Positions 15,371 through 27,300 of a DNA stretch of 64,000 bases are shown one piece after another. Every line of letters starts with the position of its first letter. Position 1 is the first letter of the stretch. The stretch covers positions 52,738 to 116,737 of the forward strand of contig WJMH01000006.1 in the NCBI GenBank assembly GCA_014728045.1, read 5' to 3'. The DNA comes from Candidatus Omnitrophota bacterium. GTDB taxonomy: Bacteria > Omnitrophota > Gorgyraeia > Tantalellales > Tantalellaceae. Below the pieces are notes generated by a model. The model searched no databases. It was given only the letters and a program-made list of their open reading frames with translations, and had not been told where the DNA came from. A program made the translations under genes and the position numbers.

Positions 15371-18300
15371 TCAGGCTCGAGAGGCTATGTACCGGCGTAT
15401 CTGTTTATAGAGCGCCCTGTCACCGGGCAGTTTTACCGCACCGGGGATAAGCCTGATCACCGCCGTTGTGCGGTAAGAGCCGGCTTCCTCATCCCAGCAC
15501 ACGCTCCATATGGCTTCATCGTCCAGCTGCTGGCCGTTACTGATATTGCGGTAACAGCGTATGAGCTCATCCTTGTCGTATCTGAGAGCTCTTGCAACGG
15601 TGAACAGCATTATCTCGACAAGCGGATAGTAGTATTCCTGCGTGAGTTGACTGTCGTCGATACCTGTTATCGTGGAGATCCCCTCAAATCCCGAGAAATA
15701 CTCCTGGCGGTTCTTCTCGCTGGTTATGATAATGATGTTCTCTTTTTCCAGTTCGCCCCTCTCCACCAGCGACTCCAGGCTGCTGCTCAATACACCGGCA
15801 GGACCGTGGCGTATGATCACGTTGCTGAGGAATTCACTCAAAAGATCATCCCCAAGACCCATATGCCTGAGCGAGTCCATCATCTTCCGCAACTGGTCCC
15901 TGGCCGGTTCAGGGCCGATCTCCCGGTCAACGACGATAACTACCTTCCTGTCATGCCCGGCCGTAGAAAGAGCGTTGACCAGTTCCGGGACCGCGCGGGA
16001 TATCCTTTCCATAACATCGACCTGTTCGGCCTGTTCATACACAGGCCCCTGCGGGGCTATATATTCATATTCGTCTTCATCAAGCTGCCAGAGAGAGAAA
16101 GCTTCCTTATCCTCCTGGTAGATCTCGCCCAGACATGAGCCCGCCGGCAGGACAACGCTTCTCCATCCTTTATCACTGAACGGGAATTCGTAATGCTCCC
16201 ACAGATTGACGTCCCTTATGGATATGTTCATTCTCTGGTATCTTCTGTCGATGCGGTCCTTGCCGGAAGCATAAACCTGTTCTATCCCGAGACCCCTGGC
16301 AGTATTGACCATGGACCTCAGGGCGGTCTCTATCCATTTTCTGTATCTTTTGCGTAAAGCGCTGTTCAAGAGCAGTCTGTATCCGCGTGAAGCCTGTATC
16401 TCATCAAAAACCATGGCGGGCTTGCCATGGATCATCCTGAATTCAACTTTCACGATACCGAACGAGCCTTCCGGGGCTATGAACATCTGTGAAGCCGGCT
16501 TTTCCAGAACTTCCAAGGCGGGATTTTCTCCGAAATAGTCCTCTTCCGGGCGGATGACCAGTTCCTCGAAGCACTCGTCGTATTCGATAACCCCGCGTAC
16601 CCTGTGTCCGTGGTATGTCCAGGATATCTTACGCGCCTGGTGATATGTTTTCAAAAAGCGCTCTTTGATCTTTTCGATGTCCGTAACGGCTTTTTCCTCC
16701 GGCTCAGCCCTGTCGGCCTTCTCCCGGTCCTCTTTACCGGTTTTTCCTTCCAAGAGCCTGTTCAGCTGCATCGTCACGTAAGTACCATTCCCCGTACCCG
16801 AACGATAACTCACCTTGCCTTCAGGCACGCCCTCTTCATCCATACTGCCTGTAAAAAGAAGCTCCTTACCGAGAGACCGCATGAGAAGCCTCTCGCCGGC
16901 AGCGCCGTCGAGCACCATGGCCGTAAAGAATATGCCCCTACCGCTCCTCTTGGTGAGACCTTCGCTCTTGACGAGTTTTATGTTATGCATGAGCCTGGCC
17001 AGATCACAACCTGAACCGTTATCTTTCGCAAAAATATCTATTTGTATCTTACTTCCCGCGCGGCGCGCCCGGCAGGCCACCACTCCGAATACATCATCCT
17101 CGTATTCGGCGATCTCTTCCTTGGAATGATTGACAATATTGTACATTAGCTCCCCCAGGACCAGACCCGCATCATAGGCATCCTTCTCTGAGAGCCCCAT
17201 ATTCTTCAACCATTCCATGGTATTTTTCCTGAAATCGGCCATCTCCTCCGCCTGGCTGTTCAGGTGTTCAGCATCCTTGATGCTCTGCCCGTTGAGGGTT
17301 ATCGCCTTTATCTCACCTCGTTCGTTCGCCTTCTCAACGGCCTGACGGGTGCTTCTGAGATCCTCAGAATCCACTGCACTTTTGATGTCGACAAAACCTT
17401 GCTCCCGGGCATCCTCTTCATCCTCGGAGAGTCGCTCTATCCCTGCCGGGCGGCGGTACACGGTTATATGTGTCTTGTCGAACCTGGTATCAACGACCCT
17501 TTCGAGCCTGCTGAAACAAACTCCCGGCAGAGGATTATTCATCACGAAGACCGCCCCCGGCTTAAGCTCCCGTAGAAGTTTTTCTTCAAGCTTCTGCCTT
17601 ATGCGTTCCTCGAATTTCCTTTTGTAGAGAGGCCAGAAAATATATATAAGATCATGGGAGGAAAAGTCTTCCCTGAAAAAGTTACCTTTCGCCACTTCGG
17701 CGTTCGTCATGTCCATGTTTGCCGAAAGTGTCTTAAGACACTCCACAGCCTGTTCGTGAAGCCTTGCGTCCTGTTCTATGCCCTTTGCCCGACCGGCATA
17801 TCTGGAGAACACGGCCACTCCCTTGGCGCTGCCACTTCCCAGATCAAGAGCGGTTTTTTCACTGTCGAGGAATGTCCGCGCGATAAGAGCAAGATCGGCC
17901 GTTCTGGATGAAATGAAGATGGCGCCGTTGGCCGTTGCTTTTGAAGTAATGATGGTCTTATTCTTCTCGCCGGTGCGGTAATAATTGTCTATGAGCGCCA
18001 CCTCTTCGTCTGCTGTAATATTGCCCCCGGGGCCATCCAGGACATCCTTGAGGGTCACTCTGTAGGGATCGGCCCCCAGAACGTAACAGATGCCATTCAC
18101 CATGAAAGCGGGAACGATCGATCTGGTGAAGATCCTTTGACATATCCCGTCCAGCCCGGGATACCTTTCGGCAAATCCCCGCACCCTGCTTCTTATCCAC
18201 AGTTGCCTGAGGACCTCGTGCAGGACCATAGTGGTCACTACAGCGGTCAGCACGATACCCACCACGCCTGCCCCCGTGATATAAGGAGCTGGTAAAGCGA

Positions 18301-24300: not shown

Positions 24301-27300
24301 ATACATAATAGGTCTTTTTCAAGTTGAGATCAGTTAGAGCTAGAGCATCCCTCACCTCTTTTTTCTTCTTACGCAGAACGTTTTGGGAGGGCCTCGCCTT
24401 TAAGGAGAGAAGGGTTTTCTTGACCATTTCGATGACAGCTGGCGGTGCTCGGGACAAACGTCTGTCAAGCTTATATTTGTAAGGTTTGCGTGACCTGGCA
24501 CATCCGAGGATACCTAAAGCGGTCAGTCCTTCAAGCTCGGTGGATATAGTGGTATATGAAAAGAGCGTGCCGTCTTTTTTCTTTCTCCTGGCTTGGAACT
24601 CCCTTCTGGTAAAAGTGTTGCCAGCCAGATCCGCATCAGAGGTGATCGTCAAAAAACCCGCTAAAAGATTACCTTTACCCGTTGAAACTACCCCTACCTT
24701 GTTGGCTATGCGCCCAGGCAGTTCCGGCGGGCCGTCTGAGGATCCTTCTTTATCTTGCTTTCTCTTCTTTCTGCTGGTATTTTGCCGTAACATTAATAGC
24801 GCAAGAACAAGCACCATGTAAGGCAGAAGCGTTCCGAAGATCGAAGACGGAGGTAATTTGCCCTGTGCCACGCTGCAGCTTCCTCCCGAACGAGATTCCG
24901 TCGGAGATCTTCCCGCGTAAATTGAAACCGGGCTGCAGTAATCACTGTCCCGTTGAGGTTCAGGCATTTCGGTACGGACGCTCAGCTCGTATGTTCCCGA
25001 ATATATATGGTCGGGCAGGTCGACAACAAGCGATGTGGTCCCCGCACCTGGGGCGAAGAAGGTCTCCCCTCCTATACTGACAGTATAGCCGGTAACCGAC
25101 CCGGAAAGAACGCCCGTATAAGGCTGCCATGTCACAGTAAAGGTCCTGCCGCCGTTACTGTCGGTGACACTGACCACTTTCGGCGGGAAAGGCCTCTGTA
25201 TCACCGATTCATACCAGTGTCTTATGTCGTCCGCCTGAATGTCGGTTATGCTGTAAGTTGTGTCATCCTGCCAGAACAGGCCCCCGCCGTCCACGCCACT
25301 CGCATAAATATCACCATATTTAGCGGGAACAGATGTCGGTTCAAGCTCACCGAAAAAGAAACCGAAACTGTTCAGACTGGAGCCCCAGGTAAGTATCCCG
25401 TCAGTGAGGGGATACCAGGGGGCCATGTAATCATAATAATGGGACTGGTCGATGTCCTGGCCGAGATCCGTCCAGTTATCCAGAAGGATCTGACGGTTCT
25501 GGGCGCCTATTGTGGTCCATGTGCCAGGGGCCTCACTGTTTATCATCTGAATGAGATCGGTTATGAAGGTCTGAACCTGTAGTACTGAGATCGTCGTCGA
25601 GGTAGTGATCTCGATCGGTTCGTTGATAATATCCCACATCAGTATTTCGGGGCGCCCGGCATAACGGTTTATAAAAGGTCTCAACGCGTTGACCAGGGCG
25701 GTCCTTTTGGCACTGTCCGTTATAAGGTCAGGATATTCTCCCACGGGGTTAGCCCCTTCCATGCTGACGTTATCGGCGATCATGTAATCGAAAAGTACGG
25801 GCACCAGTCTTATCCCGAGCACCTGCGCCGCTTCTACCAGAGCGTCCATATCCTCATAAACATGAGTGGTAAGCCCTGTCGGGCTCCCTCCCGCGTCGAA
25901 AGTGATCCCGCTCCTTATGTCACAGTAAATGAAAACCCGTACCGTGCACCCCCGGAACCGGTCGAGCTGCTGCAAGAGCTGCTCTCTTTTCGTGCTAAGA
26001 CCTTCATGGGTCTCCCCGTGAACACCGTCACCTATGTCGTATCCGTATTTCATCCAGGGCAGGTTGGCTCCACGGTAGAATTTCCACCCGGGAATGATTT
26101 CTTCGATTATTCCTTGCGAGTAATCGTGTCTTTCCTGTCTCCCGTCAGGATGATATACCATCATCTCTGTCATGTTCCAGGACAGATCATATTCATAGGT
26201 CCGGATGGTCCCGTCGGTATCCCTCTCGGAATTAATATATGTTTCCCCCGAATCGATCCTGTAAGAAGCTCCAGCACCGTTTGTAAAGGTTTTAATGGCA
26301 AAGGTCGGACTTATCGTCTCGTAAACGAAGACCGGATCTCCACCAGAATCGTAACCCCTTATAAAATGGATATCATCGGTCCCCGCGTAATATTCATATA
26401 TCTGGTAACTTCCATCCGGATCAGTTCTCCTGTCAAGCCTGCCGTAATCGTCCGAGGTATCCCCCGCGGTCCCGTTGTCGTAGAACGCCTCGTCTATCCT
26501 GTGGTCCACAGTGCCCGCGGGCACGTCATCGGAAGTGTCGCCGGGGGTATCGCCGTCCCAGTCATCAACATAAGTTTCTGTTTCTATGCGTCCGGATACG
26601 GAATAATAGGTATACGACAGGTTGGGCGCAGCGTATACCAGGACCGGGAACATAAGAACGATAAGCACCGAGAGCAGCGCCTTGAATATACGGTTAATCC
26701 GAAGTGTCCTGGCAAACTGCCCGTCATCCTTCTTGGTCGCAAGATCGGATATCATTATGGCTATATGGTAAACTTCCCACATGATATCGGGATCCGGCCT
26801 ATCCAGGTCCAGTTTGCTCAGTTTCCGATGGAGATAGCCCGCTACCTTACCTAGAGCTGCGTTGTTGCCTGATGAAAGAGCCTCTTTTGCGGTCAGGCCT
26901 TCTTCTATCTTTATCATCTTCCACGGGAGCTGGCCGTTAACATCAGTTATGGCGAAATTAAAACCTTCTTCGAACATTTCGTCTATCTTCAGACAGGTCC
27001 TTGCGAGTTTTTCAACAAGCTTGTCATGGAAAGCGTATCCCCTGGTCGCTTCGAGAAAGAACTCCATCCCCCTGGTATTGAACAACCTGTTCTTTGCCGA
27101 GAGCTGGCGCAGTTTCTTCGCCCGGCTCTTTTTCTGGCGAAAAACGCTCAGTTTTTCTAAAAAGCCTGAAATCCTGCGCCATTTTTCCACGAGAGCATCA
27201 ATGATCCTTCTCAATTTAGCCGAAGAGATCTGAGATAACCAGATGAAAAGACCCGTCGGAAAATAGTAGAAGGCCATGGAGAGGTCCCTGATCCTTACAT

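Follow-up and report, generated by a model that had tools for sequence, protein, structure and literature searches.

The locus examined here raises the question of how a single long bacterial protein comes to hold several modules that resemble one another. Giant ORF 1 lies in a window (the whole stretch of DNA that was analysed, 64,000 nucleotides) from a Candidatus Omnitrophota bacterium. A preliminary description recognised four internal paralogies within it, namely two methyltransferase (MTase)-like segments, two GHKL domains, two transmembrane (TM) 'TM-basic' modules and a repeated SYTT..ALGIL motif, and attributed them to growth by ancient intragenic duplication. The motifs on which it relied are present at the residues given (AVFSRYA at 3094 and 4173, RIRQKL at 3168 and 4243, SYTT..ALGIL at 1925 and 2218). 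The interval assigned to the duplications, 16834-24304, covers residues ~2010-4500 and omits the TM modules and two of the winged-helix copies described below, wH0 and wH-A (24371-29227).

Giant ORF 1 and its genomic context

Giant ORF 1 lies on the chromosome and is conserved, with P0002 and P0003 as its orthologues in syntenic loci. Its product is 100% identical to a database protein (P0001), and the gene order ETF-SMC-GGDEF-GIANT-CinA-LigT-RecA-RecX-AlaRS is the same in the window and in loci L001 and L002; no close relative of the source genome was found. Between P0002 and P0003, whole-gene dN/dS is 0.20. These two proteins are 90-100% identical outside a mosaic stretch of 54% identity and are further separated by a 690-aa insertion, which indicates that segmental exchange or indels happen in this gene.

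Both ends of the protein are shared across a family of long proteins. The N-terminal domain is N-terminal in 13 fetched long proteins. The C-terminal domain is present in 11 fetched long proteins and in L004, and lies at the extreme C-terminus of these fetched proteins except P0024, where it ends ~70 residues short. Neither terminal domain, nor the winged-helix or membrane-hairpin module, matches a Pfam or NCBIfam family. A cleavable signal peptide seems to form the N-terminus, and cleavage there would place a P-loop NTPase domain outside the cell. The predicted extracytoplasmic block, which is context and no duplicated module, combines YD-like repeats with an Ig-like domain and a GH5-like TIM barrel (WDIINEP at 1566); its Pfam matches to Cellulase/GH5 (0.0078) and Ig_RIMBP2 (8e-5) are weak. 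With 77-78% identity to P0003, the block is better conserved than any other part of the protein.

Table 1. Features of giant ORF 1, with window positions, residues of the protein and supporting evidence (SW, Smith-Waterman)
Feature	Position	Strand	Residues	Evidence or remark
Giant ORF 1	15371..30331	-	4,986 aa	ORF list; GF409_01335, hypothetical protein, Candidatus Omnitrophica bacterium MAG
Family-wide N-terminal domain (signal-anchor 'AWAYP' + ~130 aa)	29840..30328	-	2-164	HMM
R1, membrane-hairpin copy 1	28862..29227	-	369-490	HMM E 3e-43
wH0, winged-helix copy	27959..28261	-	691-791	BLAST vs wH-A E 4e-7; SW z 14.5; HMM E 4e-24
R2, membrane-hairpin copy 2	27533..27880	-	818-933	HMM E 9e-34
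R3, membrane-hairpin copy 3	27209..27553	-	927-1041	HMM E 7e-36
Extracytoplasmic block	24845..26632	-		Flanked by TM helices 1215-1233 and 1830-1848; hydropathy scan
wH-A, winged-helix copy	24371..24682	-	1884-1987	Holds first SYTT..ALGIL motif
GHKL1, HATPase_c-type	23822..24274	-	~2020-2170	Pfam HATPase_c, HATPase_c_2 4.6e-6
wH-B, winged-helix copy	23486..23800	-	2178-2282	Holds second SYTT..ALGIL motif
M1, PIMT-like class I MTase copy 1	20669..21259	-	3025-3221	HMM E 2e-81
M2, PIMT-like MTase copy 2	17438..18028	-	4102-4298	BLAST vs M1 E 1e-16
GHKL2, HATPase_c_2 (RsbW/SpoIIAB-type)	16802..17257	-	4359-4510	
Family-wide C-terminal domain	15374..16000	-	4778-4986	HMM

Internal repeats and their age

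Internal similarity was assessed by BLAST of 300-aa fragments against the masked protein and by SW alignment with 500 shuffles per module pair. This self-alignment, the refuting test named in the preliminary description, reveals significant similarity for the winged-helix (wH), membrane-hairpin (R) and MTase modules: their pairs reach z 13-30, none of 500 shuffles matches the observed score, BLAST E values fall to 1e-17, and the same modules are recovered independently by HMM in other genomes. The idea that the similarities are a chance or compositional artefact of a very long, low-complexity protein has the weak GHKL pair and nothing else in its favour; on the shuffles, BLAST and HMM results it is rejected for these three modules, and its overall probability is negligible. 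Three of the four proposed paralogies are thus retained, the GHKL pair being the exception. The number of MTase copies remains at two, while the wH and TM modules each occur three times rather than twice.

The earlier observation that the copies share no nucleotide-level identity also stands. Giant ORF 1 contains no significant direct repeats or self-blastn matches, codon-aligned nucleotide identity between paralogous copies is 39-48%, and third codon positions agree at just 30-52% of identical residues. Each copy has orthologues of 51-55% identity in syntenic genes: P0002, P0003 and L004 contain M1 as well as M2, and R1-R3 are all present in P0002, P0003 and P0006. Every duplicated module shows a dN/dS of 0.09-0.29 between P0002 and P0003 (M1 0.15, M2 0.09). 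Because every copy is matched by a separate orthologue in related genomes and synonymous sites are saturated, the sequences support the interpretation of the wH, R and MTase copies as genuine paralogues from ancient duplication.

The winged-helix module

The SYTT..ALGIL motif, previously regarded as a linker, belongs to a module of ~100 aa that is, judged from structure prediction, a winged-helix domain present in three copies. The AlphaFold2 (AF2) model of wH-A is of good quality (pLDDT 89.6, pTM 0.80); its top Foldseek matches are winged helix-turn-helix (wHTH) proteins throughout, all regulators, with probabilities of 0.9-0.99, and weak Pfam and PDB profile matches are likewise all to wHTH proteins. 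In this model, the supposed linker would lie inside a folded domain, as its recognition-helix and wing core. The wH-A and wH-B copies are 43% identical (E 9e-17, z 29.9). The wH0 copy had been overlooked in the preliminary description.

In neighbour-joining (NJ) trees, every wH copy falls in its own orthologue clade, with the wH0 and B clades both seen. P0002 and P0003 contain a single wH that is 55% identical to wH-B and 38% to wH-A, and which is by sequence the orthologue of wH-B. The A-like copies lie immediately upstream of a conserved helical region. The net charges of the copies in giant ORF 1 are -6, +13 and 0, and this marked inequality makes a common DNA-binding role doubtful.

The membrane-hairpin module

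The TM-basic module is predicted to be a membrane-hairpin domain of ~120 aa in three copies. R1 and R2 (359-475 vs 810-926) share 25% identity (E 1e-6, SW z 13-14), and R1 and R3 show a weaker relationship (SW z 4.3; BLAST of 385-550 vs 927-1126, E 0.006). R3, also overlooked previously, lies in tandem with R2, and the two have one hydrophobic helix in common. In the AF2 model of residues 814-945 (R2; pLDDT 82.5), a TM-plus-basic helix leads through a short helix and a beta-meander of 4 strands to a second hydrophobic helix.

The GHKL domains

Both GHKL domains are real according to Pfam. HATPase_c matches GHKL1 at 2045-2164 (E about 2e-10 to 3.6e-10), and its N-box (2047), G1 (DNGKG, 2091) and G2 (GGGSG, 2126) motifs are intact. 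HATPase_c_2 matches GHKL2 at 4359-4475 (4e-14 for the whole protein, 1.8e-10 for the isolated domain), with an N-box at 4393, G1 (DNGSG) at 4435 and a G2-like GRG at 4463; GHKL2 orthologues are ~50% identical. The two belong to one superfamily but are not demonstrably copies of each other. Residues 2010-2165 and 4365-4500 give no BLAST match and an SW z of 2.2-2.4, a score reached by 12-18 of 500 shuffles and therefore not significant.

It is improbable that GHKL1 and GHKL2 are also intragenic duplicates that have diverged past pairwise detection. An hhalign comparison (90.5%, E 1.3e-6, 73 columns including the helix before the N-box) points in that direction, as do the score of GHKL1 just under the HATPase_c_2 threshold (27.1 vs 27.4 bits) and its weak match to the GHKL2-type domain of P0005 (E 1e-4). 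However, the pairwise score does not rise above shuffles, the best Pfam family differs between the two domains, and the similarity of GHKL1 to small external HATPase_c proteins (pairwise E 1e-12 to 1e-18) far exceeds that to GHKL2. GHKL1 also behaves as an independent insertable cassette: it is missing from the orthologues P0002 and P0003 and present in L004, P0005 and P0006. L004 carries the wH-A/GHKL1/wH-B segment collinearly (45% identity over 398 aa, E 5e-108), and P0005 and P0006 carry wH-A together with GHKL1.

The methyltransferase copies and the fate of M1

The third repeated module, of ~195 aa, is assigned by profile to PIMT-like class I methyltransferases. The profile of alignment A1 matches class I SAM methyltransferases in the PDB (4mwz, 4e-5; PIMT, 4e-4), and the two copies (3029-3221 and 4105-4298) are 28% identical over 199 aa (E 1e-16, z 28.7). 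The reported loss of the GxGxG motif in M1 is genuine. Motif I reads LAVNTRDGK at 3083 against LDxGSGxxK in the family and an intact LDLGSGSAK at 4162 in M2; no frameshift was found, and the reading frame is intact across M1. The motif is kept in the other 13 aligned copies, save for a variant in P0028 (LIGYGGNAK), and is lost only in the M1 of this genome. M1 is also the fastest-evolving stretch and the least conserved domain of the protein: its identity to the orthologue is 0.38, among 100-aa windows along the entire protein, the four with the lowest conservation all fall within it, and a relative-rate (Tajima) test counts 46 vs 14 lineage-unique changes (p 4e-5), compared with 21 vs 13 (n.s.) for M2 as the control copy. 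The lineage-specific loss of motif I and the accelerated rate make M1 probably a pseudo-enzyme, as had been suggested, although the missing motif I is by itself no proof that activity or ligand binding has gone.

A less likely but tenable reading holds that M1 is not dead but neofunctionalised, still binding a ligand or partner (for instance as a SAM-independent binder or an allosteric regulator of M2 or of the GHKL domains), with its fast evolution reflecting positive selection. The open frame is compatible with this, and so is the retention of several family-invariant motifs (F72-S-R-Y-A76, E83, K148-L149, E152, A157-x-F-V); M1 keeps the conserved FSRYA and ELKPGA.FV and an acidic residue behind strand 2. 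In the sister lineage, the intact M1 is under purifying selection (dN/dS 0.15), which indicates that the position matters to the protein. Against it, five consecutive residues of the glycine loop are replaced, including the leading Asp, and divergence extends across the whole domain with no concentration at single sites.

Origin of the modules

Taken together, giant ORF 1 is very probably a conserved membrane-anchored multidomain protein whose wH, R and MTase copies stem from segmental duplication before the divergence of lineages, with M1 degenerate. It would belong to a long Omnitrophota protein family built from a shared module set. Duplication is placed before the divergence of the sampled lineages on the grounds that each copy can be matched to a separate orthologue, that synonymous sites are saturated and that purifying selection acts on every copy in the sister lineage. 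In the trees, M1 and M2 of giant ORF 1 are sisters in 0/200 bootstraps; these trees span 100-200 residues, however, and are weakly supported, with the M1 clade in 86/200 and the M2 clade in 9/200. Whether the duplication was intragenic cannot be strictly separated from module exchange, as many other long proteins contain these modules too; to that extent the original proposal holds for ancient paralogy of three module types.

Separate import of the modules by domain shuffling, through recombination with long-protein genes elsewhere in the genome or in related genomes that carry these modules, is a minor contender. Among 44 proteins scanned, wH occurs in 27 (1-4 copies each), R in 8 and M in 6, and loci L004-L007 carry further M, wH and R copies. 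In the NJ tree, wH-A is nearer to copies of P0006, P0007 and P0014 than to wH-B of its own protein, and the mosaic stretch and 690-aa insertion of P0002/P0003 also suit such exchange. Shuffling is countered by the direct tandem of R2 and R3 with their common helix, a signature of local duplication, and by the wH-B clade, which is limited to the lineage of giant ORF 1, P0002, P0003 and P0009 and nested among A-like copies, as expected of a local copy. M1 copies from four genomes cluster, if weakly, and no donor gene of higher similarity was found.

Under the preferred model of early segmental duplication, module content would have kept changing afterwards. The [wH-A][GHKL1] segment is retained here and in L004, P0005 and P0006 and would have been deleted in the P0002/P0003 lineage. 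M1 would have lost its SAM-binding glycine loop in this genome only and then evolved faster, leaving what may now be a catalytically dead structural or regulatory remnant. Domain content alone suggests that the extracytoplasmic head (YD-like, GH5-like, Ig-like) may bind or hydrolyse glycan and that TM helices could join it to protein-modifying modules in the cytoplasm, ATP-dependent in the case of GHKL and SAM-dependent in that of MTase. Hairpin modules might fasten the chain to the membrane, with winged-helix domains beside them as possible adaptor or binding units.

Comparison with known systems

At the level of single modules, the wH domain resembles wHTH domains (ArsR/SmtB, PadR, MarR, Roquin ROQ, Z-alpha) in its predicted fold of H1-H2-H3 plus a beta-hairpin wing. 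It differs in its marginal sequence matches (best E 0.01), in an additional C-terminal 'RAPP...LPARP' helix and in its position within membrane giants. Both GHKL domains share the N-box, G1 and G2 ATP-binding motifs of RsbW/SpoIIAB-type (HATPase_c_2) and histidine-kinase CA (HATPase_c) domains; however, Pfam found no HisKA/DHp, receiver or STAS partner domain in giant ORF 1, so that, as far as tested, they are not classical two-component or partner-switching modules. The MTase profile aligns to PIMT/PCMT and other class I SAM methyltransferases over the Rossmann-like core, with the glycine loop of motif I and the acidic residue that follows strand 2, and the orthologue P0002 is annotated as PIMT by JGI. 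Unlike these enzymes, the module occurs twice inside a giant protein, with copy 1 lacking motif I, and M2 scores below the Pfam PCMT cut-off (18.6 vs 20.3 bits). Type IV pilins and pseudopilins are also named among the closest known systems.

As a whole, giant ORF 1 recalls the Archaeovorins and other giant Omnitrophota genes (West-Roberts et al. 2023, bioRxiv 10.1101/2023.11.21.568195), which likewise have multiple TM helices, a mix of methyltransferase, glycosyl-hydrolase and HATPase_c domains and an extracellular carbohydrate-active part. Those proteins, in contrast, reach at least 30,000 aa and contain SecA-DEAD, glycosyltransferase, peptidase C39/S8 and NUDIX domains, none of which was found in giant ORF 1. 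The very long proteins catalogued in the same phylum (Nielsen & Lui 2026, bioRxiv 10.64898/2026.06.07.730766) are likewise TM-anchored and multidomain. For those of at least 10 kAA, repetition of Pfam domains is reported as the rule and ascribed to ancient duplication whose nucleotide tandems have dissolved, and co-occurrence of methyltransferase and HATPase is described as 'Module 1' in TM-anchored proteins. That catalogue comprises proteins of at least 10,000 aa and Pfam domains only, whereas giant ORF 1 is 4,986 aa long and, of the three modules repeated in it, wH and R match no Pfam model; a search of the preprint's main text by term gave no mention of lineage-specific pseudo-enzyme formation, the wH module or shared terminal domains. 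Giant ORF 1 shares with the catalogued proteins the pairing of methyltransferase and HATPase and the repetition of domains at least twice per polypeptide with no nucleotide tandems. Its internal module duplication is therefore real but typical of very long proteins in Omnitrophota.

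The giant gene and its orthologues

Giant ORF 1 is one of two very long minus-strand ORFs in the ORF list of the window, and an identical protein is present in the databases as hypothetical protein GF409_01335 of a Candidatus Omnitrophica bacterium MAG, for which NCBIfam holds no family. The gene order at the locus is ETF, SMC, a divergent GGDEF gene, the giant gene, CinA, LigT, RecA, RecX, AlaRS and HisD, the neighbours of the giant gene being housekeeping genes. Two full-length homologues of 5,404 aa (P0002) and 4,716 aa (P0003), each about 54% identical to giant ORF 1, come from other Omnitrophota assemblies where the surrounding genes follow exactly the same order, and are its positional orthologues. 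Because whole-gene dN/dS between these orthologues is 0.20, giant ORF 1 is regarded as a real, constrained gene.

For most of their length, P0002 and P0003 share 90-100% identity. Across a coiled-coil region of about 600 aa (residues 3145-3740 of the gene at locus L001 versus locus L002), identity is 54% and dS is saturated; in addition, P0002 carries a 690-aa insertion relative to P0003 (L002 gene residues 3729-4419), and dS varies 20-fold among the remaining domains. Taken together, the alignments suggest recombination or a hypervariable segment. The closest additional relative (L004; contig CAZMEZ010000001.1, positions 1-16000, plus strand) comes from a MAG labelled 'uncultured Planctomycetia', which may reflect either misclassification of the MAG or a family that reaches other PVC phyla. 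Its gene is divided among three overlapping ORFs (1-2811, 2709-9776 and 9701-16000), suggesting frameshifts that are either sequencing errors or real.

Internal repeats

The preliminary description proposed four pairs of duplicated modules in the protein, and every motif that it quoted lies at the residues it named. As plain self-BLAST gave the identity match alone (off-diagonal HSPs being culled), repeats were scored by BLAST of 300-aa fragments against the protein masked at the fragment and by Smith-Waterman (SW) alignment against 500 shuffles. The methyltransferase, winged-helix ('ALGIL') and membrane-hairpin (TM-associated) pairs are far above chance, with none of the 500 shuffles attaining the observed score (z 13-30, BLAST E 1e-6 to 1e-17), whereas the GHKL pair is not. 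Self-alignment thus returned significant internal similarity for these three module types, the GHKL pair excepted, which bears out three of the four proposed pairs. Copy number had been understated: a third 'ALGIL' module is present at aa 691-791 (z 14.5) and a third TM-associated module at aa 927-1041, directly tandem to the second. The interval assigned to the duplications, 16834-24304, covers aa ~2010-4500 and leaves out the modules nearer the N-terminus. The reported lack of nucleotide-level identity was borne out, with codon-aligned identities of 39-48% and third positions agreeing at 30-52% of identical residues.

Features of giant ORF 1 and scores of its module pairs (coordinates refer to the protein and to the window)
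Feature	Residues (aa)	Window position	Strand	Remarks
Giant ORF 1		15371-30331	-	4,986 aa
N-terminal signal-anchor domain 'AWAYP', ~160 aa	2-164	29840-30328	-	HMM matches in 13 other long proteins and L004
P-loop NTPase or kinase-like domain	170-350	29282-29824	-	GDPGTGKT at 207; weak Zeta_toxin, AAA and nSTAND matches
Block between TM helices	1234-1829	24845-26632	-	YD-like repeats, GH5-like TIM barrel, Ig-like domain
C-terminal domain, ~205 aa	4778-4986	15374-16000	-	HMM matches in 11 other long proteins and L004
Methyltransferase pair	3029-3221 vs 4105-4298			BLAST 28% identity, E 1e-16; SW z 28.7
'ALGIL' (winged-helix) pair	1884-1987 vs 2178-2282			BLAST 43% identity, E 9e-17; SW z 29.9
TM-associated module pair	359-475 vs 810-926			BLAST 25% identity, E 1e-6; SW z 13-14
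GHKL pair	2010-2165 vs 4365-4500			No BLAST match; SW z 2.2-2.4, 12-18 of 500 shuffles as good

Winged-helix modules

The 'ALGIL' repeat, described earlier as a two-copy linker, consists of true paralogues, yet it is neither limited to two copies nor, apparently, a linker: it is predicted to be a folded winged-helix domain. An AlphaFold2 model built on a 39-sequence alignment (pLDDT 89.6, pTM 0.80) has a three-helix core (helices 6-21, 26-32 and 43-55), a beta-hairpin wing at 59-72 and an extra C-terminal helix. The 50 top PDB matches listed by Foldseek are overwhelmingly wHTH proteins (probability 0.9-0.99, TM ~0.5), including ArsR/SmtB, PadR, MarR, Roquin ROQ and Z-alpha. Profile matches to Pfam and the PDB are weak and likewise point to a winged helix; none of them is significant, and the domain is therefore placed outside Pfam coverage.

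An exhaustive phmmer search with residues 1884-2282 against 1.84 billion representatives yielded just 40 matches at E<=1e-3, and the module is accordingly considered rare and family-specific. Of 44 proteins scanned with an HMM seeded with the three copies of giant ORF 1 (giant ORF 1 itself, its three full-length homologues, the proteins from the exhaustive search and giant ORF 2), 27 carry the module, with one to four copies each and 50 in all. The net charges of the three copies (-6, +13 and 0) argue against a uniform DNA-binding role.

GHKL domains

GHKL1 (aa ~2020-2170) scores 40.7 bits against Pfam HATPase_c (threshold 26.4) and 27.1 against HATPase_c_2 (threshold 27.4), and GHKL2 (aa 4359-4510) scores 41.3 against HATPase_c_2 (threshold 27.4). 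The N-box, G1 and G2 motifs are intact in both, at 2047/2091/2126 and 4393/4435/4463, respectively. Judged by these motifs (N-box Asn, G1 DxGxG, G2) and the Pfam scores, both are GHKL (Bergerat-fold) ATPase domains. Pfam returned no HisKA-type family among hits at E<=0.1, and NCBIfam histidine-kinase models matched only in their CA part, far below cut-offs; because a HisKA/DHp dimerisation domain, which would carry a phospho-acceptor His directly upstream of the CA part, is absent, neither domain qualifies as a classical histidine kinase. Profile-profile comparison detects homology between GHKL1 and GHKL2 in the N-terminal half (hhalign 90.5%), which would be expected within the superfamily, and GHKL1 is much nearer to small external HATPase_c proteins than to GHKL2. 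The proposal that the two are duplicates of one another thus finds no support.

GHKL1 behaves as a separate cassette together with the winged helix that precedes it. The unit of wH-A (the winged helix at aa 1884-1987) and GHKL1 is missing from P0002 and P0003, whose single winged helix is the orthologue of wH-B (aa 2178-2282). L004 has the full wH-A, GHKL1 and wH-B series in collinear order, with 45% identity across 398 aa, and parts of it occur in the homologous long proteins P0005, P0006 and P0009. The simplest reading is that the three-part series is ancestral to the subgroup and that wH-A and GHKL1 were deleted in the P0002/P0003 lineage. An A/B chimera produced by unequal recombination was also considered for the single winged helix of P0002 and P0003 and was rejected, the sequence being B-like over its whole length when the alignment was inspected by eye.

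Methyltransferase modules

The two PIMT-like modules, M1 (aa 3025-3221) and M2 (aa 4102-4298), are internal paralogues, as had been proposed. A seven-copy profile of the module matches phosphoethanolamine methyltransferase (4e-5), DOT1L (2.5e-4) and PIMT (4e-4) in the PDB, a profile similarity to solved class I SAM methyltransferase cores. Against Pfam PCMT (PF01135), M2 reaches 18.6 bits, under the 20.3 cut-off, and M1 has no match. Both modules are present in P0002, P0003 and L004; P0004, P0028, L005 and L006 have a single module, and L007 has two. A degenerate GHKL domain following M1 was examined as part of the duplication unit (aa 3222-3420 vs 4299-4530) and discarded (SW z 1.8, hhalign probability 0.2%).

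Motif I, the SAM-binding glycine loop (E/D-x-G-x-G-x-G), is present in M2 as LDLGSGSAK at 4162 and lost in M1 of giant ORF 1, which reads LAVNTRDGK at 3083. In all other aligned copies it is LDxGSGxxK, save for the variant LIGYGGNAK in P0028. A frameshift was rejected as the cause of the loss, there being no glycine loop in the alternative frames. M1 is the least conserved domain, with 38% identity to P0003 compared with 58% for M2 and 55% overall, and of all 100-aa windows along the protein, the four with the lowest conservation fall within it. In Tajima's relative-rate test with L004 as outgroup, M1 of giant ORF 1 has 46 lineage-unique changes versus 14 in P0003 M1 (p 4e-5); the corresponding counts for M2, 21 versus 13, do not differ significantly. 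In the sister lineage (P0002 vs P0003), where motif I is intact, dN/dS is 0.15 for M1 and 0.09 for M2, indicating purifying selection. A lineage-specific conversion of M1 to a pseudo-enzyme, as suggested earlier from the missing GxGxG, is thus well supported by motif loss and accelerated rate; because several other family-invariant residues are kept, M1 is best termed a putative pseudo-enzyme.

Membrane-hairpin modules

An HMM of the TM-associated repeat, whose paralogy was upheld and whose copies number three rather than two, locates R1, R2 and R3 at 369-490, 818-933 and 927-1041. P0002, P0003 and P0006 also have three copies each, and other long proteins have one or two. A further candidate at aa 4006-4100 was rejected, the SW score not being significant and the HMM giving no detection. 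The AlphaFold2 model (pLDDT 82.5) combines an antiparallel sheet of four strands with a long TM-plus-basic helix, a short one and a second hydrophobic one, and Foldseek found no meaningful match for it in the PDB. The module resembles type IV pilins but is not classed as one, because the class III signal peptide with its prepilin-peptidase site (G|F/M-x-x-x-E) before the hydrophobic helix is absent.

Age and mode of duplication

In NJ trees every winged-helix copy clusters with its positional orthologues, M1 and M2 of giant ORF 1 are sisters in 0 of 200 bootstraps, and the four M1 copies group together in 43%. These groupings and synonymous saturation indicate that the duplications predate the divergence of lineages now ~50% identical. 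With nucleotide identity gone and each copy having a separate orthologue in diverged genomes, the duplication is ancient, and this part of the earlier proposal of ancient intragenic duplication stands.

Its other part, growth in place, is less uniform. One hydrophobic helix forms the overlap of R2 and R3, as would be expected of local tandem duplication, and this pair is the clearest case of duplication in situ. The dispersed copies, however, may possibly have arrived through exchange between paralogous genes: the same modules are found in many other long proteins, and a mosaic stretch and the large insertion distinguish P0002 from P0003. The tandem R2-R3 pair is where in-situ duplication is most clearly favoured over such exchange.

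Topology and proposed architecture

Hydropathy indicates strong TM helices at 10-28, 382-400, 821-845, 921-939, 1215-1233, 1830-1848 and 4023-4041. The block enclosed by the fifth and sixth is most likely extracytoplasmic. Its GH5-like barrel has a weak Pfam Cellulase match and carries WDIINEP, with the NEP motif, at 1566-1572. Its conservation, the highest in the protein (77-78% identity to the orthologue), makes it the probable functional head. The modules that depend on ATP and SAM lie downstream and are expected to be cytoplasmic. The protein may be a membrane-spanning scaffold that links a glycan-directed outer head with modules for protein modification or signalling in the cytoplasm; in this scheme the hairpins would tack it to the membrane and the winged helices would be adaptors. 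At the N-terminus, an apparent cleavable Sec signal peptide (aa 1-32, AWA|YP) is followed by the P-loop NTPase, which would place the NTPase outside the cytoplasm; this topology is contradictory, and either it or the signal-peptide reading is wrong.

Protein family and relation to known systems

The two terminal domains, neither of which has a Pfam or NCBIfam match, recur at the N-termini and at or near the C-termini of proteins of 950-6,492 aa whose middles differ. Giant ORF 1 may, as a tentative reading, belong to an undescribed Omnitrophota family of membrane 'cassette' proteins (~1-6.5 kAA) in which constant ends frame a variable middle that evolves by module duplication, loss and decay, two modules being family-specific and without Pfam/NCBIfam match: the winged-helix unit with its 'RAPP...LPARP' tail and the pilin-like membrane hairpin. 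If true, such a family would lend itself naturally to following how domains are gained and lost and how pseudo-enzymes form between syntenic orthologues. Current libraries miss the three sequence modules and two terminal domains, which could help to annotate the large part of such proteins that lacks annotation.

Giant ORF 2 (49526-63916, minus strand, 4,796 aa) contains two Ser/Thr protein-kinase domains (aa 844-1146 vs 3285-3561) that are 35-38% identical (E 2e-44), an internal duplication of its own, and has no module in common with giant ORF 1. HMMs for the winged-helix, N-terminal and C-terminal modules found none in it or in the other unannotated ORFs of the window. Between the giant genes, the minus-strand ORFs at 41636-44287 (883 aa) and 44353-45984 (543 aa) have no Pfam match at E<=1e-3.

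A preprint on Omnitrophota reported a Pfam domain repeated at least twice in 65% of the Pfam-positive proteins of 10 kAA or more, ascribed these repeats to ancient duplication in which nucleotide tandems have dissolved, and described co-occurrence of methyltransferase and HATPase domains in TM-anchored proteins (bioRxiv 10.64898/2026.06.07.730766). Internal ancient duplication is therefore expected in this protein class, and the present finding brings no new mechanism. Searching the main text of the preprint by term did not turn up the winged-helix and hairpin modules, the shared terminal domains, or orthologue-resolved cassette loss and methyltransferase decay. What giant ORF 1 adds is a residue-level, orthologue-anchored example of how very long Omnitrophota proteins are built and remodelled, with modules duplicated long ago, kept by purifying selection and then lost (wH-A/GHKL1) or apparently inactivated (M1) in single lineages. 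The Archaeovorin study concerns proteins that are much larger and differ in their core domains (bioRxiv 10.1101/2023.11.21.568195): Archaeovorins have at least 30,000 aa and SecA-DEAD, glycosyltransferase, peptidase and NUDIX domains, whereas giant ORF 1, at 4,986 aa, shows no such domain among its Pfam hits. Giant ORF 1 thus lies under the size threshold of both catalogues and represents the same phenomenon.
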